From a virus: DNA of 64,000 bases. Shown here piece after piece: positions 22,663 through 57,448 of the stretch (positions within the stretch are counted from its first letter, which is position 1; every line of letters starts with the position of its first letter). The notes under the pieces are model-generated. The model had not been told where the DNA came from. It saw only the letters and a list, made by a program, of their open reading frames with translations, and ran no database searches. The stretch lies in the IMG/VR virus record IMGVR_UViG_3300044620_001243. The stretch is one strand, 5' to 3'. The position numbers and the translations under genes are program-made.

Positions 22663-22693
22663 TTTGATTTTTAATGTTTTTTTTATATATTTG
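22663..22693 (+). promoter_or_regulatory. Bacteroidota-type promoter
   Basis: TTTG, 19 nt, TATATTTG. Confidence 0.5.
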
Positions 22694-22710
22694 TTTTATA
22701 ATCGACAAAT

Positions 22711-23811: not shown

Positions 23812-23822
23812 AAAAAACAAAA

Positions 23823-24041: not shown

Positions 24042-24056
24042 TTCTTTAAAAGAAAT

Positions 24057-25970: not shown

Positions 25971-25972
25971 TT

Positions 25973-26185
25973 ATGAAATTCTTAGAATTACTTGCGATTT
26001 TAATATCTACAATTTTGGGATTTGTACCAATGTATTTAATTATTTTTTTTCTAACAAAAAACCCATATCTGTTGGAATGGGATTTGTGGGAAAAAATTCT
26101 TTTTCTTTTCATTTCATACGGATTATCCGGTATCTTATACGATAAGATAAAAAAAAATGTAGATGAAGATGATGAAGTTGTTTGA
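25973..26185 (+). CDS. small membrane protein
   Basis: 70 aa with two TM helices and an acidic tail. Confidence 0.45.
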   Translation: MKFLELLAILISTILGFVPMYLIIFFLTKNPYLLEWDLWEKILFLFISYGLSGILYDKIKKNVDEDDEVV

Positions 26186-26226
26186 TTTTTGAACTTTTTT
26201 TCTTATATTTTTTATAAAAAAACATT

Positions 26227-27081: not shown

Positions 27082-27082
27082 A

Positions 27083-27634
27083 ATGGGAAATTACAATTTC
27101 TCTGAAGATTTAAAATTTGGTAATATTGGTGAGGAAATTGTTGCAAAATATCTAACCAAAAATTATGGCGCGAAATTAATCGGTAAAAGTGATGTAAAAG
27201 AAAAAAACCATAAACATTTTGATTTATCTTTTGAATTTCCACATTCCAAAAATGTAACTTACGAAGTTAAGTCTGAAGACATTTATATTGTACCAAAAAA
27301 AGTTTTACCTAATGGTGCAATTTTTCCAGGAAAAGATACGGGTAATCTTTTTATCGAATATATGTGTTATCAAAAAGATAGTGGTATTATGGTGACGATG
27401 GCAGATTGGTGGGCACATGTTTTGGTACACATTGGTGAAATATGGTTTATTAAATGTGAAGAACTAAAATCGTTATTAGACAAAAACAATTTTCCAAAAA
27501 CTATTGGTGGGGATTCTAAAGATAGAAGTGGTAATATAATAAAAGAAGAAGATAGGTCACATGGTTATTTGATTCCAAGAAAAGAAGTTGAAGAACATTT
27601 TATCATAAAAAAATTTAACATCAAAAACTTGTAA
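27083..27634 (+). CDS. PD-(D/E)XK-like nuclease (putative)
   Basis: GNIGEEIVAKYL...FDLSF...YEVKSE arrangement (D...E.K); start moved to ATG 27083. Confidence 0.4.
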   Translation: MGNYNFSEDLKFGNIGEEIVAKYLTKNYGAKLIGKSDVKEKNHKHFDLSFEFPHSKNVTYEVKSEDIYIVPKKVLPNGAIFPGKDTGNLFIEYMCYQKDSGIMVTMADWWAHVLVHIGEIWFIKCEELKSLLDKNNFPKTIGGDSKDRSGNIIKEEDRSHGYLIPRKEVEEHFIIKKFNIKNL

Positions 27635-27684
27635 TTTATTTAACAAAAAGATAAATATTTATCTTAATAAAGAATTTAATACCT

Positions 27685-27876
27685 ATGACATCAGAAGAAA
27701 TGTATGAATATTACGGTTGGATGGCGTATCGCCATGGTTTTTTTAATGAATGGAGAAATGAAGTAACCAAAGAAATTAAACAAAACATAAAAGAACATGA
27801 ATTTTCCACAAAAAAAGCGGAAATTTCTGAAATCGTTTTTAGTAAAATATTATCAATTAAAAACATAAACGAATGA
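27685..27876 (+). CDS. hypothetical protein
   Basis: 63 aa ORF. Confidence 0.4.
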   Translation: MTSEEMYEYYGWMAYRHGFFNEWRNEVTKEIKQNIKEHEFSTKKAEISEIVFSKILSIKNINE

Positions 27877-28574
27877 AAGTAGAATCGTTGTTTTTATCTG
27901 ACATTCATTTGGGTTCAAAAGGTTCCAATTCAGATTTAGTTCTTAAAATATTAAAAAAATATGAACCCGAATATCTTTTTTTAGTTGGGGATATTATAGA
28001 CGGTTGGTTATTGAAAAGAAGATTTAGGTGGAAACAATCTGATACAAATGTTATAAGAAAAATTCTTTCATATTCAAAAAATGGAACAAAGGTAATTTAC
28101 ATAACTGGTAATCATGATGATTTTTTAAGAGAATATGGTGATTTAAATTTTGGTAATATTGAAATTTGTTTAGAATATAAATATAAAAATATTTTTATAA
28201 CCCATGGTGATTTATATGATGGAGTTATAAAATTAAAATGGTTGGGCGTGTTAGGTTCTTTTGGATACGATTTAGCAATTTCAATCGATAGATTTTTAAA
28301 AAAAATTGGATATAAACGTTCATTGTCTAAATTCTTAAAAGATAAAGTAAAAGAGGCGGTAAAATTTATAACCAGTTTTGAAAATGAATTAGTTAGACAA
28401 GCGAAAAAAAGAGAGTGTGATGTGGTGATTTGTGGACACATTCACAACCCCGAAGATAAAACAATTAATAATGTTCGTTATTTAAATTGTGGGGATTGGA
28501 TTGAAAACAACACATACATTACTTTTGATAAAAATATATTCAAAATTAATTATATTAAAAATGAAATACCTTAA
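27873..28574 (+). CDS. LpxH-like metallophosphoesterase (UDP-2,3-diacylglucosamine hydrolase family)
   Basis: FLSDIHLG, GDIIDGW, TGNHD, THGD, CGHIH motif series. Confidence 0.65.
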   Translation: MKVESLFLSDIHLGSKGSNSDLVLKILKKYEPEYLFLVGDIIDGWLLKRRFRWKQSDTNVIRKILSYSKNGTKVIYITGNHDDFLREYGDLNFGNIEICLEYKYKNIFITHGDLYDGVIKLKWLGVLGSFGYDLAISIDRFLKKIGYKRSLSKFLKDKVKEAVKFITSFENELVRQAKKRECDVVICGHIHNPEDKTINNVRYLNCGDWIENNTYITFDKNIFKINYIKNEIP

Positions 28575-29289
28575 TATAAAAGAAAAATTGACCATTGTCA
28601 TTCCTTGTTATAATGAAGAAAATTATTTGAAAAAAACTGTTGAATCTATATATAAACAAATTTATATAGAAGGAACTAGAGTAATTATATCAGATAATCA
28701 TTCGACAGACAGAACAAGACAGATTATTCATAATTTATCTAAAATGTATGCCGATAAGTTGAGAATTGAGTTAATTGATGGTGGGCCCGTTGCTGTATCG
28801 AGAAACTTGGGTAGTGATTTAGTGGATACCGAATATGTTTTATTTATGGATGCGGATACTCATTTATTTACGATTACAACAATATATGAAACATTGAATA
28901 ACATGATTGATTATGAATTAGATTTATTAACTTGTAAAATAAAATCTATTTCAAATGACATAAAAAGCAAAATAATATTTTCATTGTTTAATATTTTAAA
29001 TAACTTCATAAGTCTTACAAGTCCATTTGCTGTTGGTACTTATTTTTTAACACGAATTGATATTTTTAGAAAACTCGGTAAATTTGATGAAACATATAGA
29101 CATAGTGAAGATTATGGGTTAAGTAGAAAATACAACCCAACTAATTTCATGATATCTAAAAATTTTGTTGGTCAAGACAATCGTAGATTCAAAAAGTTTG
29201 GTTATATTAATATGTTAAAGTTGGTAATAAACTCATATAAAAATAGAAACAACCCTAATTTTTTTAAAAAAGATGTTGGGTATTGGTAA
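28561..29289 (+). CDS. family 2 glycosyltransferase
   Basis: IVIPCYNEE, SDNHSTD, MDADT (DxD); start moved to ATG 28561. Confidence 0.75.
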   Translation: MKYLNIKEKLTIVIPCYNEENYLKKTVESIYKQIYIEGTRVIISDNHSTDRTRQIIHNLSKMYADKLRIELIDGGPVAVSRNLGSDLVDTEYVLFMDADTHLFTITTIYETLNNMIDYELDLLTCKIKSISNDIKSKIIFSLFNILNNFISLTSPFAVGTYFLTRIDIFRKLGKFDETYRHSEDYGLSRKYNPTNFMISKNFVGQDNRRFKKFGYINMLKLVINSYKNRNNPNFFKKDVGYW

Positions 29290-29299
29290 AAAATAAGAT

Positions 29300-29737
29300 A
29301 TGACAAAAAAAATTTATATCGCATCGGACCACGCGGGTCTTGAATTAAAAAAAATTTTAATAAATAGAATAGTAAAATCGAACATAGATTTTGAAGATAT
29401 GGGTCCATTCACATATGAACCTGTTGATTATCCAGAATTTGCCCATAAGGTGTCCGATTGTGTATCGAAAAATGGGGGCACAATGGGAGTGTTAATTTGT
29501 GGTAGTGGTAATGGTGTTGCAATGACCTCAAATAAATGGGAAAATATAAGAGCATCTCTTTGTTGGAGTAGAGAAATTGCGAGTTTAGCTAGGTCACATA
29601 ACGATTCGAATGTCTTATGTATACCTGGAAGATTTTTATCAGTTGAAGACGCTATCGATATTTTGGATTATTTTATACACACACCCTTTGAAGGTGGAAG
29701 ACACGAAAATAGAGTCAAAAAAATAAACAAAACATGA
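29300..29737 (+). CDS. rpiB: ribose-5-phosphate isomerase B / sugar-phosphate isomerase (RpiB/LacAB)
   Basis: IASDHAGLELK, ICGSGNGVAMTSNK, SREIASLARSHNDSNVLCIPGRF. Confidence 0.8.
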   Translation: MTKKIYIASDHAGLELKKILINRIVKSNIDFEDMGPFTYEPVDYPEFAHKVSDCVSKNGGTMGVLICGSGNGVAMTSNKWENIRASLCWSREIASLARSHNDSNVLCIPGRFLSVEDAIDILDYFIHTPFEGGRHENRVKKINKT

Positions 29738-30498
29738 ACGTAACAATTCTTCAAACCGACATCAAGTGGAATGATGTTATTTATAATAGAAATAGAATAG
29801 AAAATAATTTAATTGATTTAAAAGACAGTGATTTAGTTATTCTTCCTGAAATGTTCACAACGGGGTTTAACATGAACCCATCTGAATCATTCGAAACAAT
29901 GGAAGGGGATACAGTTAACTGGATGAAAAAAATATCAAACGATAACGGTTTTGCGATTTGTGGGTCGATTATAATTAAAGAAAACAATAAATTTTACAAT
30001 AGATTTTTGTGGGTTGAACCAAATGGCACAGTTAAGTCTTATGATAAAAGACATTTATTTTCTTATTTGGGTGAAAATGTTAATTATGTTAAAGGTAACA
30101 AAAAAGTTATTATAGAATATAAAGGTTTTAAATTTTTACCTTTAATTTGTTATGATTTGAGATTTCCTGTTTTTTCAAGAAACAGTGAAAATTATGATGT
30201 TTTAATTTATATTGCAAATTGGCCATCAAAAAGAATAGATTCATGGGGAAACTTATTAACCGCTAGGGCGATTGAAAACCAATCTTACGTATTTGGGGTA
30301 AACAGGGTGGGTGAAGATGAGAATGGATTAACATACAGTGGTATGTCTCAAATCATTGACCCAAATGGAAACAAAATAATAATTATGTTACACATTGAGG
30401 GTAAATACACCTATACAATTGAAAAAGACCACATATCACAGATAAGGTCTGAATTTCCCTTTTTAAAAGACAAAGATTATTATCAACTATATATGTGA
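29734..30498 (+). CDS. carbon-nitrogen hydrolase (nitrilase superfamily, omega-amidase-like)
   Basis: LPEMFTTGF (Glu), KRHLF (Lys), ICYDLRFP (Cys) catalytic triad context. Confidence 0.8.
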   Translation: MNVTILQTDIKWNDVIYNRNRIENNLIDLKDSDLVILPEMFTTGFNMNPSESFETMEGDTVNWMKKISNDNGFAICGSIIIKENNKFYNRFLWVEPNGTVKSYDKRHLFSYLGENVNYVKGNKKVIIEYKGFKFLPLICYDLRFPVFSRNSENYDVLIYIANWPSKRIDSWGNLLTARAIENQSYVFGVNRVGEDENGLTYSGMSQIIDPNGNKIIIMLHIEGKYTYTIEKDHISQIRSEFPFLKDKDYYQLYM

Positions 30499-30544
30499 TT
30501 CAATTGAACATGGTTGCATAATATAAATTTTATTTTTAATTCAT

Positions 30545-30567
30545 CGGTAAAATTTTACCGATTTTTT
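30545..30567 (+). terminator. rho-independent terminator (AT-rich stem)
   Basis: Palindrome CGGTAAAATTTTACCG followed by ATTTTTT, after the nitrilase gene. Confidence 0.45.
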
Positions 30568-30596
30568 GGTTTTTACGAAAAAAACCACTATATTTG
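30565..30596 (+). promoter_or_regulatory. Bacteroidota-type promoter
   Basis: TTTG, 20 nt, TATATTTG. Confidence 0.5.
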
Positions 30597-30623
30597 ACTG
30601 TAATTTGAAAATTAAAAAACGTT

Positions 30624-31046
30624 ATGAAGATAACTCAATCAATGAAGTTAAATGATTGGACCTACAATCAAAAAAGAAATGTCGTTTCAAGGGCAATTAA
30701 ATGGTGTAAAGAAAATATTAAATCAAATAAGAAAAGTAAAATTCCATTAACATATGTTGTAAAAAAATACGAAAAAGATAAAATAACCTACGGAGGTTAT
30801 AGTCATGATTATAATAGAATATTTATTTACTTTAAAAATATAAATAATTTAAAATTATTATTGTGTACAGTAATTCATGAATACCAACATTCAACTCAAC
30901 CAATGATAGTAAAATATAATTTGTATTCAAAAAAATATGGTTATTGGAAAAATCCATTAGAAATTGAAGCGAGAGACGCAGAAAAGAAGTATTTTCGCGA
31001 ATTGTATAAACACATTAAAAAAACACAAAATGAAAACCAAAATTGA
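30624..31046 (+). CDS. hypothetical protein with HExxH motif
   Basis: 140 aa; VIHEYQH; promoter 30565-30596 upstream. Confidence 0.4.
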   Translation: MKITQSMKLNDWTYNQKRNVVSRAIKWCKENIKSNKKSKIPLTYVVKKYEKDKITYGGYSHDYNRIFIYFKNINNLKLLLCTVIHEYQHSTQPMIVKYNLYSKKYGYWKNPLEIEARDAEKKYFRELYKHIKKTQNENQN

Positions 31047-31149
31047 GTTTATTATAAATCTAATCATTAGTTCAACTTCGATTATTGCTTTTTCAATTCT
31101 TGTTTATGGGGTATACACCTTAATAAATGATATGTTTAATAGAGGATGA
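31030..31149 (+). CDS. small membrane protein
   Basis: 39 aa from internal ATG of track ORF 30964; single TM helix. Confidence 0.3.
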   Translation: MKTKIEFIINLIISSTSIIAFSILVYGVYTLINDMFNRG

Positions 31150-31817
31150 TTTTAATATCTAAATTAAAAAAAACCATGAAAAGTAAATTCGAATTCAAAG
31201 ACAATCGTTCTTTTAGTGTAAAGATGAAAGATTTTGCTCAATCTCTACTTTTTTGGAAAGGTAGAAAAAAAGGAATGATTTACACTCGTGATATTGTGTG
31301 GGGTGATATTCGTGAAATATTCTTTCCTAAAAACTTTGAGGAAAAATATGGTTATTTAGGTTCGGTTCCTTATGACCCGAGGACAAATACTTTTAAGGCA
31401 CTTTTACCCTTAGTTCTTGCTATGGATTACGAAGCAAAACCTAAATGGTGTCCTCGTTGGGTATTGAGATTTCTTTATGTATTTGGTGATGATAAATCTA
31501 TGGTAAGGGTTCGTAATAGGTTTTTATCTAATTTATCTAAAAAACTAACCAAAGGAATTACATTATACGATTACAAGACTAAATGGTCGTACTATGATTT
31601 AAGGATTAGTATTGGTGCTCCCCAATATCTACAAGATTTGGCCGATGACATTGAGCATGGTTATTACCAAAGAGGTAGGAGAGAAGAACTATTGAGTAAT
31701 ATCAAAAAGTATGAACCAGATTTTAATAAATGGATGACCATAAAAGAATTAGGTGAATATTTGGATGGTTTATCAGAAAAAAAAATAGTTAGAAAAAATG
31801 ATGAGGAGGGCGATTAA
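31146..31817 (+). CDS. hypothetical protein
   Basis: 223 aa ORF; same frame as 31818-32075 with only one TAA between them. Confidence 0.5.
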   Translation: MILISKLKKTMKSKFEFKDNRSFSVKMKDFAQSLLFWKGRKKGMIYTRDIVWGDIREIFFPKNFEEKYGYLGSVPYDPRTNTFKALLPLVLAMDYEAKPKWCPRWVLRFLYVFGDDKSMVRVRNRFLSNLSKKLTKGITLYDYKTKWSYYDLRISIGAPQYLQDLADDIEHGYYQRGRREELLSNIKKYEPDFNKWMTIKELGEYLDGLSEKKIVRKNDEEGD

Positions 31818-31877
31818 ATTAGAGATGAAGCAGATAAAATACTGAGCGAAGGTAGAAACAAACTCCTACAAGAAGAT

Positions 31878-32075
31878 TTGGGTAAAAATGGAAGTTATAG
31901 TATTTATAACCCCAATGAAGTAGATGAAAGTTGTAGGGTTGCTTTTGACTTGATACAGGTTATTAGACATGAATTTTGGAAAAACGAACCAAACAGAAGT
32001 AGCATAACTGTCGATTCATCAGTACATTTGAGAACAAAGGAATCAGGTAAAATTAAATGTAAAATAGATGTCTAA
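31878..32075 (+). CDS. hypothetical protein (TTG start, or read-through extension of 31146-31817)
   Basis: Frame is open from 31818; no ATG start available. Confidence 0.3.
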   Translation: MGKNGSYSIYNPNEVDESCRVAFDLIQVIRHEFWKNEPNRSSITVDSSVHLRTKESGKIKCKIDV

Positions 32076-33363
32076 ATACAAACCCATAGGGATTACACCC
32101 AAAGAAAAAGCAGACCAGTTGTTAGAATCTGTTATGTTTAGTCTAAATAAACAATTTGACCCAAACACAGGTGAATATCAACCAATCCCAACCAACCCGC
32201 ATTATAAAGAATGCGCATTAGCAATTGTAAACGAAATCTTTGAGTTTATTAAAAAAGATGATTTAGATTCCGAAACGGCGTATTGGGCAAATCATCCTAT
32301 TTCTAATTTTTGGGTTGAAGTTGAACGTGAAATTAAAAAACAAATGAATTTGATTCAAATTTTAGAGAATTATTTTCAAAAAGGTTGGTTGATTAAACAA
32401 ACTCACCCAACTTTACCTCTGACAATTTGGAATTATTCCCAAACAACCCAATACGAGGGTAGGTGGGATGAAATAACCCTCATGTGTAGAGGTTTGGTTA
32501 CAGATGATGATGGAAATATTGTTGCCAGACCTTTCAAGAAGTTTTTCAATTTAGAAGAGGGAAAACACACACCAACCTCAGAATTCGAAGTATATGAAAA
32601 GATGGATGGTTCTTTGGGTATTTTCTTTTATTATCAGGAGCAACCCGTTTTTGCATCCAGAGGTTCTTTCACTTCCGACCAAGCCATCAAAGGAAGAACT
32701 CTTTTAGATAAGTATAATTGGCAAGGTGGAACTTACCCTGGCTACACTTACCTATTTGAGATTCTTTACCCGGAAAATCGGATAGTAGTAAATTACGGTG
32801 ATTTAGAAGAACTGGTTGTTTTGGGTGTGCTCAATACCCAAACTGGAGAAGAGTGTGATTTTTCAGAAATGAAAAACGAAGGATTCGTTCTAGTTAAAAA
32901 ATACGATGGAGTTAAAGACTATACCAAATTAAAGAGTATGATTTTTAACAATCAAGAAGGGTTTGTTGTAAAGTTTTCAAACGGAAATAGGGTAAAAATC
33001 AAAGGAGAAGAATACTTGCGTCTTCATAAGATTATGACTGAAGTTTCGACTAAATCTGTTTGGGAGATTTTATCCAATGGTGATAATATGGAAGAGATAC
33101 TCAGAGATGTTCCTGATGAATTTTTTGATAAGGTCAAGGAATATGAAACAGAACTTGTTTCTAAATTTGATGATATAAAGAATGAATACACTTGGATTTA
33201 TAAAGTTTTAGAAAGAAACGAGGAAATTTCAGAAAATAGAGCTATCTTTGCCCAATACGCTAAAAGATACAAACACCCATCCATTTTATTTGGTCTATTG
33301 GACGGTAAAAATATAGACCCTATGATTTGGAAAATAATACAACCCGAATATAAAAAACTATGA
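32068..33363 (+). CDS. rnlA: RNA ligase, T4 RnlA (Rnl1) family, with about 92-aa N-terminal extension
   Basis: CRGLV...IVARPFKKFFN, adenylylation motif I YEKMDGSL (T4: KEDGSL), SRGSFTSDQA, FEILYPENRIVVNY, EGFVVKF..G.RVKIKGEEYLRLH all parallel T4 Rnl1 as recalled. Confidence 0.85.
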   Translation: MSKYKPIGITPKEKADQLLESVMFSLNKQFDPNTGEYQPIPTNPHYKECALAIVNEIFEFIKKDDLDSETAYWANHPISNFWVEVEREIKKQMNLIQILENYFQKGWLIKQTHPTLPLTIWNYSQTTQYEGRWDEITLMCRGLVTDDDGNIVARPFKKFFNLEEGKHTPTSEFEVYEKMDGSLGIFFYYQEQPVFASRGSFTSDQAIKGRTLLDKYNWQGGTYPGYTYLFEILYPENRIVVNYGDLEELVVLGVLNTQTGEECDFSEMKNEGFVLVKKYDGVKDYTKLKSMIFNNQEGFVVKFSNGNRVKIKGEEYLRLHKIMTEVSTKSVWEILSNGDNMEEILRDVPDEFFDKVKEYETELVSKFDDIKNEYTWIYKVLERNEEISENRAIFAQYAKRYKHPSILFGLLDGKNIDPMIWKIIQPEYKKL

Positions 33364-33773
33364 AATACTCAATTTACTTAGATGATGTGAGGACACCCAT
33401 TCCGGGTAATATAGACTGGATTGTTGTCAGAAGCTACGACGAGTTTGTGAGTAAAGTCACCCAAATCGGTCTTGACAACATAGACCTTATTTCCCTCGAC
33501 CATGACCTTGGCGACTCTGCTATGAAGGAGTGGCACACAAATGTCTATCACAACTACACGCTGGATTACAACAACATTACAGAAAAAACAGGTATGGACT
33601 GTGCAAAATGGTTGGTTAATCAGTGGCTGGACGGTGCTCCCGTGGTGAAAGTTATGGTTCATTCTGCAAACGCTATCGGCTCGGCTAATATGATGGGTTA
33701 CATCAACAATTACAAGCATGTGCATAGAATGATACAAGATTGCCAAAGGTGGGTAGTTCCACACACGGTTTGA
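33360..33773 (+). CDS. receiver-like domain protein of the type found next to RNA-repair genes
   Basis: IYLDDVR...W..VRSYDEF...ISLDHDLG pattern, recalled as a 'cyclic-phosphate processing receiver'-like domain (low certainty). Confidence 0.4.
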   Translation: MKYSIYLDDVRTPIPGNIDWIVVRSYDEFVSKVTQIGLDNIDLISLDHDLGDSAMKEWHTNVYHNYTLDYNNITEKTGMDCAKWLVNQWLDGAPVVKVMVHSANAIGSANMMGYINNYKHVHRMIQDCQRWVVPHTV

Positions 33774-33811
33774 TTTTTTGGGAATTTTTTTGTATGTTTG
33801 TGTAAAATGAA

Positions 33812-34021
33812 ATGATGAAAAAATTGTTGTTCCTGATATGTTTTTTCACAATCTCCTGCAATAATGAACGTCCGTGGCGAGTCATTGAGGTGAGACAAAA
33901 AAGTGAAATGTGTGAGTACGTTCTGAGCCGCAGTAACGGACTAGGTCCACAGTTAAAAGAAGTAATCGACACTTGTGGAAAATACCAATGGAATCAAGTA
34001 ATTCAAAACAAAGACCTATGA
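33812..34021 (+). CDS. small lipoprotein
   Basis: MMKKLLFLICFFTISC signal peptide plus lipobox. Confidence 0.5.
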   Translation: MMKKLLFLICFFTISCNNERPWRVIEVRQKSEMCEYVLSRSNGLGPQLKEVIDTCGKYQWNQVIQNKDL

Positions 34022-34446
34022 AACAATACTTAGAGTGGCTTGAAAAACAAATTGACTTTTATTTAGAGGATAAAACGATGCAAAGAGAACATTGGGCTTT
34101 TTGTAAGGCATACGAGAAGTTCAAAAGCCTTGAAACGACCGCTGAATCAGAAGAACTCACACCCTACATTGAATACTACTCCAACGGAAATGTATCTATT
34201 AAAGGACAATTGAACTCCAAAGGACAAGAAGAAGGTCTTTGGGAGTGGTTCTATCCAAACGGAAACATCGAATGGAGAACCCCATACAAGGAGGGTAAGA
34301 TGGATGGAATTGAGGAGCGGTTTGATAAACAAGGAAACATCAAATGGAGAATCCCATACAAAGAGGGAAGGAGGATGGGATTGAGGAGGAATTTGATGAA
34401 CGAGGAAACATCACCGAAACCCATATTTGGAAAGATGGAGAACTAA
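34018..34446 (+). CDS. MORN/YwqK-type repeat protein, frameshifted at its last repeat
   Basis: Repeats YYSNGN..G.W.WFYPNGNIEWRTPYKEGKMDGIEE; after about 34368 the conserved repeat continues in another frame (ending 34454). Confidence 0.55.
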   Translation: MKQYLEWLEKQIDFYLEDKTMQREHWAFCKAYEKFKSLETTAESEELTPYIEYYSNGNVSIKGQLNSKGQEEGLWEWFYPNGNIEWRTPYKEGKMDGIEERFDKQGNIKWRIPYKEGRRMGLRRNLMNEETSPKPIFGKMEN

Positions 34447-34470
34447 TTGAATAAACTAAACACTAAACCT

Positions 34471-34719
34471 ATGAAAGACGGACAAACAATCGGCCAATGG
34501 CTGAACTGGGACTTTGAGGACAATGGTAACCTTAATGTTAAAGACAAGAATGGCAATCTCATCTACCAAGAATCTCCAAGTGGCTTTTGGGATAGGCGCG
34601 AATTTAATTCGAATGGCTTTGTCATCTACTATGAAAATTCAGATGGTGTCATTACTGACAACCGCACTCCCGAAATCATCGAACACAACGGACGCAAATA
34701 CCAATTAATTCCTAACTAA
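34471..34719 (+). CDS. hypothetical protein
   Basis: 82 aa from ATG 34471 (track ORF starts at TTG 34447). Confidence 0.45.
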   Translation: MKDGQTIGQWLNWDFEDNGNLNVKDKNGNLIYQESPSGFWDRREFNSNGFVIYYENSDGVITDNRTPEIIEHNGRKYQLIPN

Positions 34720-34725
34720 AACAAA

Positions 34726-35382
34726 ATGAAACTAATTTTAGAAAAAGACCAAAGATTATTTTTTACTAGTGATACCCACTACAATCACTCTAATATTTGT
34801 AGGGCAACTACAAAATGGGAGGACAGTTATGATGCCACTCGTGATTTTAAATCTTTAAGTCACATGAACGACAGTATTGTTCAGAATATTAATGATTTGG
34901 TAAAAGAAAATGATGTTTTAATCCACATGGGAGATTGGTCATGGGGTGGATTTGAATATATTGAAGAATTTCGAAAAAGGATTGTTTGTAAAAACGTTCA
35001 CTTAGTTTTTGGAAACCATGATGAACATATTAAAAAAAATACAGAAAACATTCAAGATATATTCACATCAACTCATGATTATTTACATTTGGATGTTAGA
35101 CAACCTTCCTCAACCAACAAAGGGTCAGTAAATAAGTTTGAATTTATTTGTATGCACTATCCTATTGCTAGTTGGGATGGTTTGTACCACGGTACAATTC
35201 ATTTACATGGTCACACACATCTAACTCCTAACTCTAGAATTTCACAAGGAAAAGCAATGGATGTTGGTGTAGATGGTAACGAGTATAAACCTTTACTTAT
35301 GCAAGAGATTATTGTTATCATGGGAAATAGAGAAATAAATCACCTTTGTTTACCAAAAGACCGTAACGAAAAAAGAATTTGA
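34726..35382 (+). CDS. calcineurin-like metallophosphoesterase
   Basis: SDTHYNH, MGDWSWG, FGNHDEH, MHYP, LHGHTH motif series. Confidence 0.75.
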   Translation: MKLILEKDQRLFFTSDTHYNHSNICRATTKWEDSYDATRDFKSLSHMNDSIVQNINDLVKENDVLIHMGDWSWGGFEYIEEFRKRIVCKNVHLVFGNHDEHIKKNTENIQDIFTSTHDYLHLDVRQPSSTNKGSVNKFEFICMHYPIASWDGLYHGTIHLHGHTHLTPNSRISQGKAMDVGVDGNEYKPLLMQEIIVIMGNREINHLCLPKDRNEKRI

Positions 35383-35783
35383 AAATTATGAAAAATCTAA
35401 TATTATTAAGGGGTTTACCTGGTTCGGGAAAATCGACAGTCGCAAAAATGTTGGTCAACAAAGACTACTGTCATAAAGAAGCAGATATGTTTTTCGTCGA
35501 CAGAGAAGGCAACTATAAGTTCGAGCCGTCGAAAATCAAAGACGCACACGCTTGGTGCCAAGAAGAAGTTGAGTTCTTGTTGAGACTCGAACACACGCCG
35601 GTGGTTGTTTCCAACACATTCACACAAGAATGGGAGATGGAAGCTTATTATAAGTTGGCCAAAGATTACGGTTACACAGTTTTCTCATTGATTGTTGAAA
35701 ACCGACACGGCGGAAGGAATATTCACGGTGTTCCTGATGATAAGTTAGAAATTATGAAAAACAGATTTGAAATAAAATTATGA
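35379..35783 (+). CDS. P-loop polynucleotide-kinase-like kinase (PNK/N4BP2 clade)
   Basis: LLRGLPGSGKSTVAK Walker A, EADMFF, VVSNTFTQEWE; about 134 aa stand-alone kinase. Confidence 0.6.
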   Translation: MKIMKNLILLRGLPGSGKSTVAKMLVNKDYCHKEADMFFVDREGNYKFEPSKIKDAHAWCQEEVEFLLRLEHTPVVVSNTFTQEWEMEAYYKLAKDYGYTVFSLIVENRHGGRNIHGVPDDKLEIMKNRFEIKL

Positions 35784-36130
35784 AAGAAAAACAAATTGAT
35801 AAGTTATACCTAGACAGATTCATCGATTCGATGGAGAATGATTATGAAAATTGGAAAATGGACCATTACGCCGGACCAGGGATGTCATGGGCAGAATTTC
35901 ATAGTCCAACTTATGAAAAAGAAAATGGAGGAAGGTTATCTTTTGGTTGGAGTTCAAATCATATTGGTGCCTGGGTGAACGGTCATTTTTCTTGGAAAAT
36001 ACCGTTTGCTGTTTTGAATCCATTCAATCCTATTTTTTGGAAATTCAGAAGGGCCGAAAAAAGAATGAAAAATTATTTGAGAAGTAAAGAAAAAGAGTTA
36101 TATTTGGATAATTTAAAAAACGTATTGTAA
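35780..36130 (+). CDS. hypothetical protein
   Basis: 116 aa ORF, ATGA overlap. Confidence 0.5.
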   Translation: MKEKQIDKLYLDRFIDSMENDYENWKMDHYAGPGMSWAEFHSPTYEKENGGRLSFGWSSNHIGAWVNGHFSWKIPFAVLNPFNPIFWKFRRAEKRMKNYLRSKEKELYLDNLKNVL

Positions 36131-36669
36131 TGATTAAACTATATTATATAATACTCAAAGATAAAATCCGGTCTTGGAAAAACTTTATCAAAAATATTTG
36201 GTTATTTAGAAAGGAGCTTACTGATTTTCATTGGTGGGATTATAGTGGTCTAATTCAATTTATGAACACAGGCATTAATGAAATGGTTAATGGGATTGAG
36301 AATAAAGGTAGTGAGATTAAGTCCACTAAAATGAAAAAAGTGGACAAAATGAGGCGTGCTTGTGAGATTTTACAAAACCATATAGATGATAACTACACCA
36401 CAATGGCTGAAAACATTTTGGGTAAACTTTACGATTCTGAAATTAAATTTGTTCCTTTGGAAGATAGACCTGATTTATTTAGATATGAAGATGGTTTAAC
36501 TGAAGAACAAAGTGAACACAACTTAAAAGTTTTTTTAAAATCTCGTGAACTTGAAGTTAAGGAATGGGAAGAATTTTGTGAAATAATTAAAGGACAGGGA
36601 GATTTTTTCGAACAAGATAGTTGGGAGGAAGAGTTTGATGGTTCGGGACTTAAAAATTGGTGGAATTAA
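36130..36669 (+). CDS. hypothetical protein
   Basis: 179 aa ORF. Confidence 0.5.
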   Translation: MIKLYYIILKDKIRSWKNFIKNIWLFRKELTDFHWWDYSGLIQFMNTGINEMVNGIENKGSEIKSTKMKKVDKMRRACEILQNHIDDNYTTMAENILGKLYDSEIKFVPLEDRPDLFRYEDGLTEEQSEHNLKVFLKSRELEVKEWEEFCEIIKGQGDFFEQDSWEEEFDGSGLKNWWN

Positions 36670-36691
36670 AATTTTCAAAGCATAAAAAATT

Positions 36692-36982
36692 ATGAAAATA
36701 GAAATAAACAAAACATATTTAACAAAGCACGGTCGATTTGTGAAAATGGTATGTGAGCCTTGGTCCGGAGTATTTAACGGTGAATATGAAGAAGATGGAA
36801 GAGGGGGGGATATGGTTCCCAGATATAAAGAAGATGGAAAAGCGTGGAATGTTTTTTTTACCATGGGGGGTGTTTATTTTCCCGAACACGACATCATAAT
36901 GGAAGATAGTGCTGAAGCAAGAAAACTTGCTCAAGAAATGAAGTTAGAAAGAAAGAGGAAAGCATACGAAGAAACTAATTAA
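36692..36982 (+). CDS. hypothetical protein
   Basis: 96 aa ORF. Confidence 0.45.
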   Translation: MKIEINKTYLTKHGRFVKMVCEPWSGVFNGEYEEDGRGGDMVPRYKEDGKAWNVFFTMGGVYFPEHDIIMEDSAEARKLAQEMKLERKRKAYEETN

Positions 36983-37006
36983 GTATTAATTTTTAATCGA
37001 AAAAAT

Positions 37007-38032
37007 ATGAAAAAACTAGAATTAACAAAAGACGAATTGGAAAAACTTTATTATCTCCCCCCAAAGGATGTTGAGAAAGAAACAGAATTCCAAATAACCT
37101 ATCGAATGGGTAGAAACTCATTAGTGTTGGAGTTGATAAAAAAGATAGATGAGGAACTCACACCCTACATTGAATACCACGACAACGGAAATGTGTGGAT
37201 TAAAGGACAAGAGAACTCCGTAGGACAACGAGAAGGCATTTGGGAGTATTTCTGGGTGAACGGAAACATCGAAAGGAGAATCCCTTTTAAAGAGGGTAAG
37301 GTGGACGGTATTCAGGAGGTTTTCTATCCAAACGGGAACATCGATTTTAGAACCCCATTCAAAGATGGTAATATGGATGGAATTCAGGAGTGGTTTGATG
37401 AACAAGGAAACATCACCAAAACCACTCTATGGAAAAATGGTGAAGTAATTGAAGAAACTGAACCCGAACTCACACCATACGTTGAATACCACGACAACGG
37501 AAATGTAGCGGTAAAAGGACAAAAGAACTCCGTAGGACAGGAAGAAGGTATTTGGGAGTTCTTCTATTCAAACGGAAATATCCAATATTCAAACGGAAAT
37601 ATCCAATGTAGAACCCCATACAAAGAGGGTAAGGCGGATGGTATTCAGGAGGTTTTCTATGAAAGCGGAAACATCCATTGGAGAACCCCATACAAAGAGG
37701 GTAAGAGGGATGGAATTGAGGAGTGGTTCTATGAAAACGGAAACATCGAATGGAGAACCCCATACAAGGAGGGTAAGATGGATGGAATTGAGGAGCGGTT
37801 TGATAAACAAGGAAACATCAAATGGAGAATCCCATACAAAGAGGGAAAACTGATTGAAGAAACTAAACCCAAACCACAACCTGACCCACAACTAATTGAT
37901 TTTATGGCAATGAGATACAGACATGACTTTGGGTTTTTGGATGAAAAACACAAAGAATCCATCAGAATAACAATGAAACAACTTTGGGAAGAAGTTGTTG
38001 GTCTTGGATTTTATAAACCAAAATCAAAATAA
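37007..38032 (+). CDS. MORN/YwqK-type repeat protein
   Basis: 341 aa; about 9 tandem roughly 23-aa repeats (G.W..F..NGNI..R.P.K.GK.DGI.E.F). Confidence 0.7.
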   Translation: MKKLELTKDELEKLYYLPPKDVEKETEFQITYRMGRNSLVLELIKKIDEELTPYIEYHDNGNVWIKGQENSVGQREGIWEYFWVNGNIERRIPFKEGKVDGIQEVFYPNGNIDFRTPFKDGNMDGIQEWFDEQGNITKTTLWKNGEVIEETEPELTPYVEYHDNGNVAVKGQKNSVGQEEGIWEFFYSNGNIQYSNGNIQCRTPYKEGKADGIQEVFYESGNIHWRTPYKEGKRDGIEEWFYENGNIEWRTPYKEGKMDGIEERFDKQGNIKWRIPYKEGKLIEETKPKPQPDPQLIDFMAMRYRHDFGFLDEKHKESIRITMKQLWEEVVGLGFYKPKSK

Positions 38033-38038
38033 TGAAAT

Positions 38039-38338
38039 ATGAATAAAATTAAATTTTACAGGGATTCTCATAGCATTTCCCGAGATATGTATGAACATAT
38101 TAATGACCCATCTTTGGTAGATGAATTAGATAAATGGGAATCGGTTCGATATAGAATGAGTGATGAAGGAATTGAATATTGTTTTAAACATTATTCTACT
38201 TTTAGTGAAATTGAAGATGAACAATTCCATTCAAAACGTGAAAAACTAATTGAACTGATGGTAGACATAGAAGAATATGTCCAAAATAAAATCACAGAAA
38301 TAAAAGACGAAATAACCAAACTAACAGAAGATGAATAA
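38039..38338 (+). CDS. hypothetical protein
   Basis: 99 aa ORF. Confidence 0.45.
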   Translation: MNKIKFYRDSHSISRDMYEHINDPSLVDELDKWESVRYRMSDEGIEYCFKHYSTFSEIEDEQFHSKREKLIELMVDIEEYVQNKITEIKDEITKLTEDE

Positions 38339-38380
38339 AATCGAAAAAGCAATTTACGACACAAAACTCCATATTGAAAA

Positions 38381-38412
38381 GTTGGAAAATCAAAATTTAC
38401 TTCGTATATTTA
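38381..38412 (+). promoter_or_regulatory. Bacteroidota-type promoter
   Basis: GTTG, 20 nt, TATATTTA. Confidence 0.45.
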
Positions 38413-38430
38413 CACCATAATTAAATCTCT

Positions 38431-38658
38431 ATGAAATACATTCTCCACAAAACACTCATACTTGTCATGTTTGCATTATTTTGCTCCGAAGTATTGAAAA
38501 TATGCTTCGGATTAATGAACCAACCATCCACACTTCAATTCCTAACGGGCGTTGCAGTACTGATGACAGGAATTTATGGTTCTTTTTACTTTGTAAAATG
38601 GCTTATCAATTACCCAACTTCAAAAACCAAAAATAACTCTCAAAATCAAAACAATTAA
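38431..38658 (+). CDS. small membrane protein (possible partner of the SPFH protein)
   Basis: 75 aa, two TM helices; promoter 38381-38412 upstream; directly precedes the SPFH gene. Confidence 0.45.
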   Translation: MKYILHKTLILVMFALFCSEVLKICFGLMNQPSTLQFLTGVAVLMTGIYGSFYFVKWLINYPTSKTKNNSQNQNN

Positions 38659-38670
38659 AAAACAAAAAAA

Positions 38671-39525
38671 ATGAATCAGAAAAACTTAATTATTCTCGGA
38701 GTTGCCGCCTTTATCTTAGGCCTCTTCTCTATGACCAGCTGTGAAATAATCGACGCTGGTCACGTTGGTGTTAAAGTCAATCTTTACGGCGACGGAAAAG
38801 GTATTGACGATGTGACCGAAGTCAATGGCAGGGTATTCTACAACCCCTTTACCACAAAAATTGTTGAATTTCCAACTTTTATCCAGCACAAAGAATACAA
38901 ACACAACGGAGAAGACAATCCCGATGAATCTTTTGTGGTCAACTCAAAAGATGGGTCAGAGTTTCATGTATCTCCATTATTGAACTATTCAGTCAAGAGG
39001 GAAAGAGTTCCTTATATTTTCGGTAAGTACCGAGTTACTCTGGATGAAATCGAATCTGGTTTCTTAAAAACAGCAGTCTATGATGCCTTTCGTGTTGTCG
39101 CAAATTCATACACCGCAGATGAATTGATTTCAAATCGTGAACAGTTCGAAGTAAAGGTTCGTAAGGTTTTGGTAACCCATCTCTTACCCGAAGGATTCAT
39201 ACTAGCACAATTTACATCTAATCTTGTCTATCCCGAAACATTCAAGAAAGCCATTGAAGCTAAGAACAATGCGGTTCAATCAGCACTCACCGCAGAGAAC
39301 AGAGTAAAACAAGCGGAGGCCGAGGCAAAAATCAAAATTGCACAAGCCGAAGGTAATGCTCAAGCAATGCTGACTTCGGCCAAGGCAGAAGCGGAGTCAA
39401 ACAGGATGAAACAACAAACCATTACACCTATGCTTCTACAACTTGAGTACATCAAGAAATGGAACGGAGTTGAACCCACAACACAATTGTGTTCAGGGTC
39501 AAATATGATGTATAACATAAAATAG
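38671..39525 (+). CDS. SPFH/Band-7 (prohibitin-homology) domain protein
   Basis: N-terminal anchor, SPFH core, and A/E/K-rich coiled region RVKQAEAEAKIKIAQAEGNAQA typical of the family. Confidence 0.7.
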   Translation: MNQKNLIILGVAAFILGLFSMTSCEIIDAGHVGVKVNLYGDGKGIDDVTEVNGRVFYNPFTTKIVEFPTFIQHKEYKHNGEDNPDESFVVNSKDGSEFHVSPLLNYSVKRERVPYIFGKYRVTLDEIESGFLKTAVYDAFRVVANSYTADELISNREQFEVKVRKVLVTHLLPEGFILAQFTSNLVYPETFKKAIEAKNNAVQSALTAENRVKQAEAEAKIKIAQAEGNAQAMLTSAKAEAESNRMKQQTITPMLLQLEYIKKWNGVEPTTQLCSGSNMMYNIK

Positions 39526-39550
39526 AAATTAAAAGAGAAATGTTTAAAGA

Positions 39551-39576
39551 GGGAAGAATTGTCTTCCCTTTTTTTT
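39551..39576 (+). terminator. rho-independent terminator
   Basis: GGGAAGA-ATTG-TCTTCCC followed by TTTTTTTT, 25 nt after the SPFH stop. Confidence 0.65.
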
Positions 39577-39601
39577 GTTTGGTATTTTAAAATTTATTTC
39601 G

Positions 39602-39609
39602 TATATTTA
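39602..39609 (+). promoter_or_regulatory. -7 box TATATTTA
   Basis: Directly after terminator 39551-39576 and 4 nt before ATG 39614. Confidence 0.4.
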
Positions 39610-39613
39610 CACT

Positions 39614-40333
39614 ATGAAAACCGTATTCATCGGCGATATTCACGGACGTTCCATTTGGAAAGAAATTGTAGAACAGGAAAAACCTGATAGGGTTATTTTT
39701 GTCGGAGACTATTTCGACTCACTTGATATTCCAGGTATTGACCAAATTCATAATTTTAAAGAAATCATTCACCACAAAAAAACAAGTGGAATTGAGGTTG
39801 TACTGTTGGTAGGTAATCACGATTATCATTATATGGATATGGGTGAAACTTACAGTGGATTTCAACCTGCTCTAAAATTTGATATTGGGCAGTTACTCAA
39901 AGAAAATATGGAACATTTACAAATGGCACATTCATTTGATAATTTCCTTTGCACCCACGCTGGTGTATCTTCGGTGTTTATGAATGATAATTTTAGAGAT
40001 AGTTGGGATTGCGATAATTTAGTTGAAAAACTGAATGAAACATTTAAATATTCTCCATTCATTTTTAAGTTCAATGGTTTTAATCCATATGGGGATAATG
40101 AAACACAATCACCTATTTGGATTAGGTTGAATTCATTGAGAAGTTCAAATAACAAACGAGGTAAAGATGGAATTAAAAAGCAATTTATTCAAGTGTTTGG
40201 ACACACCCAAGTTAAAGAAATTGATTTGGTTGGAATGGCGAAATTTTTAGGTGGTAGATATATTATGATTGATGCTTTACCATCCCGTCAATACCTAATT
40301 TACAATGGAGAAATTAAAGTAGGAAAAGTGTAA
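39614..40333 (+). CDS. Ser/Thr phosphatase-type metallophosphoesterase
   Basis: VFIGDIHGR, VGDYFD, VGNHD, THAG, GHT motifs; start moved to ATG 39614 downstream of promoter. Confidence 0.7.
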   Translation: MKTVFIGDIHGRSIWKEIVEQEKPDRVIFVGDYFDSLDIPGIDQIHNFKEIIHHKKTSGIEVVLLVGNHDYHYMDMGETYSGFQPALKFDIGQLLKENMEHLQMAHSFDNFLCTHAGVSSVFMNDNFRDSWDCDNLVEKLNETFKYSPFIFKFNGFNPYGDNETQSPIWIRLNSLRSSNNKRGKDGIKKQFIQVFGHTQVKEIDLVGMAKFLGGRYIMIDALPSRQYLIYNGEIKVGKV

Positions 40334-41586: not shown

Positions 41587-41725
41587 AGTCAGATGGCGAA
41601 ATGTAGCCGCTATTTGGGTAAAACAGTTTAACACGAGACGCGAACCTCACACAAAGCCTGATAATAACCAAATGAAAGTGCGAAGTACAGTAACACTTAT
41701 ACGGGTTCGACTCCCGTTCTGACTG
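41587..41725 (+). ncRNA. tRNA-Leu-like shell RNA 1 (divergent copy)
   Basis: AGTCAGA-TG-GCGAAATGTAGCCGC ... ACGGG-TTCGACT-CCCGT-TCTGACT-G; 90-nt insert with ATTTGG/CCAAAT stem around 51 nt, plus AAGTG/CACTT arm. Confidence 0.55.
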
Positions 41726-56830: not shown

Positions 56831-57448
56831 ATGCAAAAAGTTATTTTCTTGGATATTGATGGGGTAATGAACTCACATATTTTCTATGAACAAAGGCATA
56901 GAAAAAGATGGTTGAAATGGAGAACTTATTATTTTTTGATTAGAAGATTTTTGGGGATTAAATCCAAATCCGTGAGTCTTGCTAACCACAAAACACCCAA
57001 ATCCCATTGCACATACCAACACCAATTTAAAAGATTAAAAGAAGAGACTTGTCAGCAAAAATGGAAATGGCTTGCTAATTTCTGCAACGAGACTGGAACT
57101 AAAATTTGTGTATCATCTGTGTGGAGATTTCATTTTGGAAATGAAGAATCGGTTATACCCCTGTGGTGGGAACGAGCACTGATTGATTTGGGTTTCAACG
57201 AAGGAACATTTGTTGGTATCACCGACAGATTGGGAATGAGAGGAGAAGAAATCAAGGATTGGCTTCAAAAAAATCAGGAAGTTCAGGAATATGCAATTTT
57301 AGATGATGACTCTGATATGCTACCTGAACAGATGGATAAATTTTATCATTGTGATGGATATTTTGGTCTTTCTCCCAATCACTTATATCGTATCCAAAGA
57401 GCCTTCTCGGGTAAAAGTAAATATGGACATTTGAATAAAACCGTATAA
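56831..57448 (+). CDS. HAD-like phosphatase (recalls the HAD domains of 'Swiss-army-knife' RNA-repair proteins)
   Basis: VIFLDIDGVMNS motif I; ILDDDSD motif near the C-terminus. Confidence 0.45.
   Translation: MQKVIFLDIDGVMNSHIFYEQRHRKRWLKWRTYYFLIRRFLGIKSKSVSLANHKTPKSHCTYQHQFKRLKEETCQQKWKWLANFCNETGTKICVSSVWRFHFGNEESVIPLWWERALIDLGFNEGTFVGITDRLGMRGEEIKDWLQKNQEVQEYAILDDDSDMLPEQMDKFYHCDGYFGLSPNHLYRIQRAFSGKSKYGHLNKTV

Follow-up and report, generated by a model that had tools for sequence, protein, structure and literature searches.

A predicted split heal-and-seal RNA repair module in an uncultivated phage with arrays of tRNA-like RNAs

Does a phage that carries many tRNA-like RNAs also carry the enzymes to mend broken RNA, and if so, on which RNAs would those enzymes act? 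The question is raised by a 64,000-nucleotide (nt) stretch of the IMG/VR virus record IMGVR_UViG_3300044620_001243 (hereafter the window; all positions are those of the whole stretch), in which genes for a putative RNA ligase, a cREC protein, a metallophosphoesterase and a kinase lie close together on one strand. The window comes from an uncultivated phage whose host lineage is probably Bacteroidota, since its nearest cultured relative is Flavobacterium phage immuto (71% and 58% protein identity to the window's cREC and phosphoesterase, respectively). Defences that cleave tRNA are widespread – PrrC, RloC, PARIS, and retron- and CRISPR-associated nucleases – and phages counter them with spare tRNAs and with RNA repair. 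In the classic case, T4 Pnkp and Rnl1 repair the tRNA-Lys cut by the PrrC anticodon nuclease.

A first-pass annotation of the window had named four open reading frames (ORFs; 32068-33363, 33360-33773, 34726-35382 and 35379-35783) as an RNA break-repair toolkit. We found all four on the plus strand at these coordinates, and all four domain assignments held in Pfam, PHROG, PDB sequence and fold searches. We consider it probable (roughly 0.6) that the cluster is a split heal-and-seal RNA repair module that acts on nuclease-cut RNAs, of which tRNAs are the likeliest.

The ligase, phosphoesterase and kinase genes are linked across phages

We mapped the proteins neighbouring the window's ligase onto 23 viral contigs, all partial, that encode relatives of this ligase. 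Of these loci, 19 have the phosphoesterase together with the ligase, 16 have the kinase and 15 have both. Two permuted gene orders occur – ligase, phosphoesterase, kinase and phosphoesterase, kinase, ligase – and the genes often abut, with overlapping stop and start codons. In the closest relatives (L004-L009) the ligase, phosphoesterase and kinase genes abut with neither cREC nor MORN genes among them. L022 resembles the window in having an insertion between ligase and phosphoesterase; this insertion starts with cREC and is otherwise a different block of ~5 kb.

Relatives with 52-63% ligase identity have the second order, with the three genes abutting in L010-L012 and within 4-5 kb of each other in L014, L015, L017, L019 and L023. 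Three further loci (L018, L020 and L021) encode cREC, the phosphoesterase and the ligase without this kinase. At L021 (5286-7373) an Rnl5-like ligase, with a PHA02142 OB fold and an RNA_ligase domain, lies directly upstream of the Rnl1-type ligase, and cREC, a Pyr_excise-like ORF and the phosphoesterase come just ahead of the two ligases. A third arrangement was found in a phage of a different host phylum: Aeromonas phage phiA009 (OM033134) encodes the phosphoesterase (28% identity), Rnl1 (29%) and the kinase (55%), in that order, as three contiguous overlapping genes, 0145-0147.

The clustering exceeds chance, since it turns up in permuted order among relatives of 50-60% identity as well as in an Aeromonas phage. 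The pattern of linkage across relatives identifies the phosphoesterase, kinase and Rnl1 genes as the putative conserved functional unit, with cREC and HAD_SAK as apparent mobile accessories, and supports a joint heal-and-seal function for the three predicted enzymes. Alongside this linkage, the domain identities and the intact catalytic motifs described below are observed directly.

The predicted sealing enzyme is an Rnl1-family ligase

The first-pass annotation had described the ligase ORF as colinear with T4 Rnl1, and Pfam, PHROG, PDB sequence and fold comparisons all place it in that family. The protein matches Pfam RNA_lig_T4_1 (PF09511) at 5e-17 (62.8 bits; gathering score, 28.3), PHROG 562 at 4e-71 (amino acids (aa) 90-430 over profile positions 8-366 of 377) and, in a sequence search of the PDB, T4 Rnl1 (2c5u) at 2e-17. 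The motifs quoted earlier – LMCRGLV...ARPFKKFFN, EKMDGSL, FEILYPENRIV and EGFVVKF...KIK – are present in the translation. KMDGSL, FEIL, EGFV and KIK fall in register with T4 K99, E159, E227/G228 and K240/K242, which accounts for nucleotidyltransferase motifs I (the KxDGxL lysine nucleophile), III (FE), IV (EGxV) and V (KxK). Elements specific to Rnl1 upstream of motif I are also kept: CRGL and RPFKKFFN align to T4 ECRGI and RPMEKFFN, and thus to T4 R54 and K75/F77. Mutagenesis by the Shuman laboratory found the aligned T4 residues to be essential.

An AlphaFold (AF2) model of the ligase, built on 54 sequences, had a pLDDT of 83. A Foldseek search of the PDB with this model gave T4 Rnl1 as the best match (5e-17, 379 aligned columns; 375-residue 2c5u chain), followed by archaeal Rnl3, fungal Trl1 ligase domains (6n0t, 1.5e-8) and Rnl2/Rnl5, with DNA ligases appearing only near 1e-4. 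The first-pass annotation had held that placement of the ligase or kinase in a DNA-specific family would speak against RNA repair; the ligase falls in an RNA ligase family and ranks by fold far closer to RNA than to DNA ligases, and neither protein was placed in a DNA-specific family. The model is helical at residues 314-423, though its superposition on T4 Rnl1 (TM 0.45-0.51, root-mean-square deviation 14.8 A) leaves the domain orientation and finer detail uncertain. In T4 Rnl1, an all-helical C-terminal domain confers tRNA specificity.

Identity to T4-like Rnl1 proteins is about 26-29%, and to the nearest GenBank relatives, from Streptomyces phages, 36-39%. The sole cellular relative found was from Rapidithrix thailandica (44% identity). 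By Pfam and by modelled fold, we assign the ligase to the Rnl1 family, and not to the NCBIfam equivalog of T4 RnlA.

We also observed an interrupted gene of this type. At L026 (10004-11952) an Rnl1-type ligase gene breaks off after FEIIY, in the region of motif III, where an 849-bp ORF intervenes that weakly matches I-TevI DNA-binding and NUMOD3; the interruption looks like a homing-endonuclease insertion or an intron.

The N-terminal extension appears to be an upstream gene

The first 92 codons of the ligase ORF had been left as an unexplained N-terminal extension of the RnlA-type protein. We found that in L004, L007, L008 and L022 these codons form a separate ORF, ending ...EIKLR, whose TGA overlaps the ATG of the ligase (AGATGAAC). 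At the corresponding junction in the window (AAAAAACAAATGAAT) the stop is gone, and the upstream ORF and ligase are in frame. The fused 431-aa form is also present in P0121-P0123 (90-99% identical), and P0124 and P0125 encode unfused 339-aa ligases that begin at the residue equivalent to Met93 of the window protein – a position at which the window ligase retains a start codon.

A homologue search with the 92-aa sequence returned 50 clusters, all of stand-alone proteins of 53-114 aa, mostly ~92 aa, and none of the 50 contained a Pfam domain. Homologues at 64% and 55% identity are encoded on phage-like contigs with no adjoining ligase. The comparison of frames in relatives and the homologue search led us to reject the extension as a ligase domain. 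Since it is a separate ORF in relatives and has stand-alone homologues, we read it instead as an independent small gene joined to its neighbour when the stop codon was lost, and place the most likely start of the ligase proper at Met93 (32344).

Candidate healing enzymes

The full metallophosphoesterase motif set reported for ORF 34726-35382 was confirmed. The protein matches Metallophos at 1e-6 and PHROG 547 (phosphoesterase) at 6e-40, and D16/H18, G69-D70, G96-N97-H98, H144 and G162-H163-x-H165 are invariant in 16 homologues, which gives the calcineurin-like set of metal ligands (DxH, GD, GNH(D/E), H, GHxH). Single-sequence and profile searches of the PDB found one solved relative, the uncharacterised Aquifex protein aq_1665 (1xm7, 1.5e-6). 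The earlier likening of this protein to the bacterial Pnkp phosphoesterase thus did not stand: it appears to represent a Metallophos subfamily different from the Pnkp type, one that could perform the same chemistry. Its predicted activity is that of a 2',3'-cyclic phosphodiesterase and/or a phosphomonoesterase.

The kinase had been described as a stand-alone P-loop protein (GLPGSGKST) of the polynucleotide-kinase clade. It is indeed stand-alone, and its top fold matches are all known or presumed polynucleotide kinases. Sequence searches matched it to AAA_33 (4e-13), PHROG 2071 (7e-43) and PHROG 505, a polynucleotide kinase family (3e-10). At least 8000 candidate homologues were found at E<=1e-5, making this a very abundant protein in metagenomes; the 120 among the matches listed are 77-98% identical and 131-149 aa long. 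As most have 131-132 aa, the ATG at 35388 is most likely the true start, the TTG at 35379 being just the first possible start of the mechanically called ORF.

Polynucleotide 5'-kinases have a catalytic Asp ~20 residues after the P-loop (T4 D35). Both the P-loop and D33 are among the invariant residues of the window kinase family, and D33 aligns to T4 D35 and to the NRDD motif of Pnkp1, so that the protein has GxxGxGKS/T and the downstream Asp. In a profile search of the PDB the only long alignments were to Pnkp1 and T4 polynucleotide kinase. The 18 best Foldseek matches in the PDB (3e-5 to 3e-4, TMq 0.60-0.67, for a model of pLDDT 64.5) were CthPnkp (Clostridium thermocellum), T4 Pnkp, Pnkp1 and stand-alone kinases of Mucorales, which we take to be polynucleotide kinases; APS kinases ranked next. 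Membership of the polynucleotide-kinase clade is likely but not proven.

That ranking of APS kinases is one of several observations that could be turned to a quite different account, in which the genes have unrelated jobs: the ligase would help attach tail fibres (as T4 gp63 does), the kinase would serve nucleotide metabolism and the phosphoesterase would dephosphorylate proteins or nucleotides; alternatively, they would act on DNA ends. 'Tail fiber protein attachment catalyst' is part of the label of PHROG 562, the label of PHROG 2071 is just 'ATPase', and many metabolic genes surround the cluster. On the other side, the three genes stay linked in different orders and in phages whose hosts belong to different phyla, every catalytic residue of the ligase is retained, DNA ligases lie far below RNA ligases by fold, and GDxxDRG, the motif of PPP protein phosphatases, is missing from the phosphoesterase. 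We therefore regard this account as highly improbable.

Accessory genes and the possibility of signal degradation

ORF 33360-33773, taken earlier for the receiver-type domain of RNA-repair operons, is a clear cREC match (Pfam cREC_REC, PF20274, 1.8e-21, 77 bits with a cut-off of 27; PHROG 1479, 3e-24). Residues D8, D9, D47, H48, D49, S102 and N104 are invariant in nine homologues, and neither single-sequence nor profile searches of the PDB found a related solved structure. The domain identity thus stood, and membership of the conserved core did not: the cREC gene is absent from the closest ligase-phosphoesterase-kinase operons (L004-L009) and is best seen as an accessory insertion.

The HAD_SAK_2 gene (4e-19), distant from the cluster in the window, has a 78% identical homologue in L107 directly after an Rnl1-type ligase, and its product is a possible additional remover of 3'-phosphates.

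The mobility of cREC bears on another explanation, namely that cREC, and possibly the phosphoesterase, degrades immune signals (ADPr>P, cADPR-like molecules or 2',3'-cyclic nucleotides) and so serves anti-signalling in place of RNA end healing. Iyer et al. propose that cRec degrades such signals; in jumbo phages it often occurs as a fusion with Nudix (PMC7824862 section 3.4.8; PMC9503650 section 3.4.5). In keeping with this, the conserved trio can do without cREC, which moves separately, and the window encodes a type I Thoeris inhibitor (8527-9099; Pfam Tad3, 6e-38), which implies that it counters NAD-derived signalling. Set against this, the cREC start overlaps the ligase stop, which suggests translational coupling; cREC recurs near the phosphoesterase and ligase in L018, L020, L021, L022, L071 and L107; and among the ~85 window ORFs scanned for domains there was no sirtuin, KptA, Nudix, Macro or 2H domain. 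On balance, signal degradation by this part of the cluster, in place of end healing, seems rather unlikely.

A heal-and-seal reading of the cluster

If the cluster is a repair module, its predicted enzymes would act in sequence on RNA breaks. The kinase would phosphorylate 5'-OH ends to give 5'-phosphates, and the metallophosphoesterase would turn 2',3'-cyclic or 3'/2'-phosphate ends into 3'-OH/2'-OH; cREC might open the cyclic phosphate and the distal HAD_SAK protein might strip the linear one. The Rnl1-type ligase would then adenylylate the 5'-phosphate and join the ends. The likeliest substrates would be host or phage tRNAs that metal-independent RNases (host defence enzymes or toxins) have nicked in the anticodon loop, and repair would restore translation, as T4 does with Pnkp and Rnl1 against PrrC.

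By analogy with T4, a role in tRNA repair is plausible, and the surroundings of the ligase in other genomes lend it some weight. The nearest GenBank ligases, those of Streptomyces phages, sit in tRNA arrays with a polynucleotide kinase or AAA-ATPase nearby. Of 20 relatives, 8 have canonical tRNA genes no more than 10 kb from the ligase. In the window, genes for tRNA-Lys(UUU), tRNA-Glu(UUC) and tRNA-Met are present, and the Tad3 homologue is consistent with a counter-defence region of the genome.

The one cellular relative of the ligase provides a further parallel. In Rapidithrix thailandica (NZ_JBDKWZ010000004, L153; 2398-8002), genes for Rsr/TROVE, five tandem YrlA-like RNAs, the Rnl1-type ligase and a fused Pnkp follow one another in that order. 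The RNAs score 35-42 bits in Rfam, below the gathering score (E 1e-7 to 3e-5), and the Pnkp is a true fusion of AAA_33 and HAD_PNKP, as in T4. We interpret this operon as the Rsr / Y-RNA / RtcB repair operon in a form that has Rnl1 and Pnkp. We count this operon, the neighbouring tRNA arrays and Tad3 in favour of RNA repair.

Several observations weigh against it. No tRNA gene lies within 10 kb of the ligase in 12 of the 20 relatives. The ligase reached 84 bits with NCBIfam TIGR02308 (T4 RnlA equivalog), for which the cut-off is 242.25, and the PDB searches with the phosphoesterase, by single sequence and by profile, gave no match to the Pnkp/Pnkp1 phosphatase domain (4xrp and others) at E<=1. 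At 27873-28574 and 39575-40333 the window has two more Metallophos genes, which show no sequence relationship to the toolkit phosphoesterase. As for the kinase, its profile alignment with Pnkp1 and T4 PNK is marginal (E = 0.017, about 0.02), its AlphaFold model is of medium confidence (pLDDT 64.5) and comparison with T4 PNK revealed no evident counterpart of Arg38 (R38). The cREC family is experimentally uncharacterised, with its activity predicted only (PMC9503650). We infer the enzymatic activities, the order of the steps, tRNA as the substrate and the host nuclease.

tRNA-like shell RNAs

The window also carries ~17 tRNA-Leu-like genes (41587-41725, 44792-48170 and 61412-63028). Their acceptor stem, D arm and T arm are nearly the same throughout (AGTCAGGTGGCGGAATGG ... 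CAGGTTCGAATCCTGTCCTGACTA); they enclose unrelated cores of 30-110 nt and have no encoded CCA, and we refer to them as shell RNAs. The 3' 23-mer of the shell occurs in at least 120 IMG/VR contigs. Searching 50,697 GenBank phage records with the shell sequence gave no match beyond weak similarity to tRNA-Leu, and a literature search on such arrays found nothing relevant. One shell core (44993-45101) is conserved in L007 (5228-5336), and the window's HAD_SAK_2 gene lies, with a gene for an HD-domain protein (55622-56194), between two of the arrays.

Two candidate signs of tRNA splicing were rejected. The oversized tRNA hits (98-159 nt) are not intron-containing tRNAs, as the 17 shells share no anticodon arm and have unrelated middles. 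A Pfam match on ORF 54262-54897 to Sen15, a splicing endonuclease subunit, was treated as spurious: it contains no individually significant stretch and belongs to a tandem family of paralogues with DUF4116 repeats.

The first-pass annotation had placed the repair genes and the tRNA-like array in the same genome segment, which is correct – the shell RNAs lie at least 9 kb from the toolkit – and had suggested that the shell RNAs might be substrates, decoys or sensors. A shell copy lies within 10 kb in 4 of the 23 ligase loci, and a toolkit gene was present in 8 of 120 shell loci (stretches averaging ~9 kb). By a rough estimate, chance placement in a ~150-kb genome would yield about the same two counts. 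We therefore found no specific linkage of shell RNAs and toolkit, and presence in the same genome is all that the linkage data contribute to the suggested roles.

We nevertheless considered whether the toolkit acts chiefly on the phage's own shell RNAs – maturing, splicing, circularising or recycling them, or re-sealing them as cut decoys – with host tRNAs secondary. Besides the ~17 copies in the window, a few loci place the two side by side: three shell copies are directly upstream of the ligase in L024, two are inside the cluster in L022 and one is ~30 nt from the cREC gene in L107. The Rapidithrix operon, with its five tRNA-like RNAs beside Rnl1/Pnkp genes, supplies a bacterial precedent. 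These cases contrast with the 19 of 23 ligase loci that have no shell copy within 10 kb and with the scarcity of toolkit genes at shell loci. Aeromonas and Streptomyces phages have the triad too, and the GenBank phage records contain no shell match. The variable middles, without a common anticodon arm, do not fit one intron-interrupted tRNA, and searches of the window yielded neither an Rsr/TROVE protein nor a YrlA hit. Such a role thus appears improbable.

A stronger proposal would join repair enzymes and shell RNAs into one system, in which a tRNA-shaped library is cut by, or titrates, host tRNA nucleases and is then re-sealed; alternatively, the repair enzymes would build the shell RNAs by cleavage and ligation. 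If true, this system would give phages an equivalent of the bacterial Rsr / Y-RNA / ligase operons. Its positive support extends to co-residence and the few adjacent cases (L022, L024 and L107) and no further, and we judge the proposal, with both versions taken together, decidedly improbable. We continue to favour a repair module acting on nuclease-cut RNAs, most likely tRNAs.

Gene organization and neighbouring features

Positions 32068-36669 form a densely packed array of genes on the plus strand (Table 1). The ligase TGA overlaps the cREC ATG (CTATGA), the phosphoesterase stop lies 5 nt ahead of the kinase ATG and the kinase stop overlaps the start of the next ORF. The block between cREC and the phosphoesterase probably has no part in repair. 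Whether the two ORFs that follow the kinase are members of the module is uncertain; in L004-L009 and L022 their homologues show 94-97% and 80-83% identity, respectively, and a homologue of the second (37%) lies beside the phosphoesterase and kinase genes in L046.

Table 1. Predicted genes of the cluster and the distal HAD phosphatase gene.
Feature	Position	Strand	Basis or remark
Small upstream ORF, 92 codons	32068..32343	+	In-frame fusion to the ligase; the N-terminal extension of the first-pass annotation
Rnl1-family (T4 RnlA-type) ATP-dependent RNA ligase, predicted sealing enzyme	32344..33363	+	Pfam, PHROG, PDB, fold
cREC (cyclic-phosphate-processing receiver-like), accessory	33360..33773	+	PF20274, PHROG 1479
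Passenger block between ligase/cREC and phosphoesterase, three ORFs	33812..34719	+	Missing in L004-L009
Lipoprotein-like ORF in passenger block	33812-34021	+	
MORN-repeat protein in passenger block	33973-34446	+	MORN_2 at 1.7e-8
Third passenger ORF, no function assigned	34447-34719	+	
Binuclear metallophosphoesterase, predicted 3'-end healing enzyme	34726..35382	+	Metallophos, PHROG 547
Stand-alone 131-aa P-loop polynucleotide-kinase-like protein, predicted 5'-OH kinase	35388..35783	+	AAA_33, PHROG 2071, PHROG 505
Two ORFs packed against the kinase	35780-36130, 36130-36669	+	Starts overlap preceding stops; no Pfam match, PHROG 8579
Distal HAD phosphatase, 'Swiss-army-knife' RNA-repair type	56831..57448	+	HAD_SAK_2 at 4e-19; ~21 kb downstream of the cluster

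A scan of 30.4-38.5 kb found promoter-like sites no more frequently than in shuffled sequences. The sole plus-strand terminator-like site in this interval, at 30543, is upstream of the block – an arrangement compatible with co-transcription without being evidence for it. GC content rises from ~0.28 (20000-32000) to 0.35-0.36 (32000-40000), a step across the toolkit region. Identity to L004 is mosaic within the operon (ligase 92%, phosphoesterase 76%, kinase 98% and next ORF 97%), which suggests recombinational exchange of modules.

Several other features of the window were recorded. L004-L009 and L107 have a conserved copy of the Metallophos gene at 39575-40333 close to the cluster. Three MORN_2-repeat proteins, whose repeat units closely resemble one another, are encoded at 33973-34446 (inside the toolkit insertion), 37007-38032 and 57468-58595, and the copy number and position of these genes vary among relatives. 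Three tandem paralogous ORFs with DUF4116 repeats (53525-55616) give spurious-looking Pfam hits to Sen15, DRTGG and Ub-Mut7C, with no individually significant stretch. A SET-domain protein (10705-11139), a glutamine-synthetase-like protein (1807-2958) and an NDP-hexose 2,3-dehydratase / GFO-IDH-MocA oxidoreductase pair (49002-51418) add up to a wealth of auxiliary metabolic genes that is unusual in a phage segment.

Comparison with known systems

Neighbourhoods of this type have already been described computationally (Iyer et al. 2021, 2022), and the window cluster is a further example. The domain cRec was named, and its operonic links to phage RNA ligases noted, by the Aravind group (Viruses 2021, PMC7824862). 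Their later survey described phage neighbourhoods that combine a T4-like tRNA ligase with cREC, a nucleotide kinase, MazG, in some cases a calcineurin-like phosphoesterase, and a sirtuin (PMC9503650 section 3.7.3), in medium-sized phages of the E. coli phage V5 / Proteus phage Mydo type (Iyer, Burroughs, Anand, de Souza, Aravind, Viruses 2022, PMC9503650). A repair role was predicted for the combination of ligase, cREC, kinase and calcineurin-like protein (PMC9503650 section 3.7.3; PMC7824862 section 3.4.9). The window shares these components and the predicted clearing of 2',3'-cyclic phosphate ends before ligation. It differs in having neither sirtuin nor MazG among the ~85 ORFs scanned, in a probable Bacteroidota host lineage and in that the window-type phosphoesterase belongs to the constant core whereas cREC is variable.

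The T4 system of Pnkp and Rnl1 (RnlA, gp63), directed against PrrC, employs a ligase of the same family, to which the window ligase aligns along its length with all the nucleotidyltransferase motifs. Its logic of 5' kinase, 3' healing and sealing is also the same, and the modelled fold of the window kinase is closest to the T4 and Clostridium Pnk kinase domains. In contrast to T4, the window's healing activities are predicted to reside on separate polypeptides, its kinase is a minimal 131-aa protein and there is an extra cREC gene. The 3' healer of T4 is a HAD/DxD phosphatase fused to the kinase, whereas that of the window would be a metallophosphoesterase; the window kinase is not fused to a DxDxT HAD 3'-phosphatase, and the HAD_SAK_2 gene is separate and 21 kb away.

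The bacterial Pnkp/Hen1 and Pnkp1-Rnl-Hen1 systems (Clostridium thermocellum, Capnocytophaga gingivalis) would share their chemistry with the window: a kinase, a binuclear metallophosphoesterase and an ATP-dependent RNA ligase. The window kinase model matches the kinase domains of CthPnkp and Pnkp1, and PHROG 8238, a family of fused kinase-phosphoesterase-ligase proteins, matches all three window proteins. Unlike in Pnkp/Hen1, the window proteins are separate, the ligase is of the Rnl1 type rather than a Pnkp ligase domain and the phosphoesterase has no sequence match to Pnkp/Pnkp1; a scan of the window's ~85 ORFs found no Hen1 or RNA methyltransferase domain. Fungal and plant Trl1 combines the three activities predicted here (kinase, cyclic phosphodiesterase, ligase) on 2',3'>P / 5'-OH breaks, and its ligase domain is among the fold matches of the window ligase. 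The architecture differs, and Trl1 uses a 2H phosphodiesterase and needs a 2'-phosphate and Tpt1, whereas the window has no 2H or Tpt1/KptA protein.

For Rnl1-type repair genes beside arrays of tRNA-like RNAs, the Rsr (Ro60)-YrlA operon of Rapidithrix is the precedent. The window differs from it in lacking a TROVE protein or YrlA hit, in the distance of at least 9 kb between shell RNAs and toolkit, and in the ordinary, not permuted, tRNA topology of the shells.

By itself the cluster reveals no new mechanism. What is new here is the division into core and accessory genes, the account given of the N-terminal extension, a corrected start for the kinase, the placement of a minimal kinase by fold and the negative result on linkage to shell RNAs. 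The cluster provides a clear example from an uncultivated, probably Bacteroidota-infecting phage lineage of a three-gene unit that Aeromonas phages also have. Its compact, separately encoded proteins are suited to testing RNA-end healing by a non-Pnkp metallophosphoesterase and cREC.

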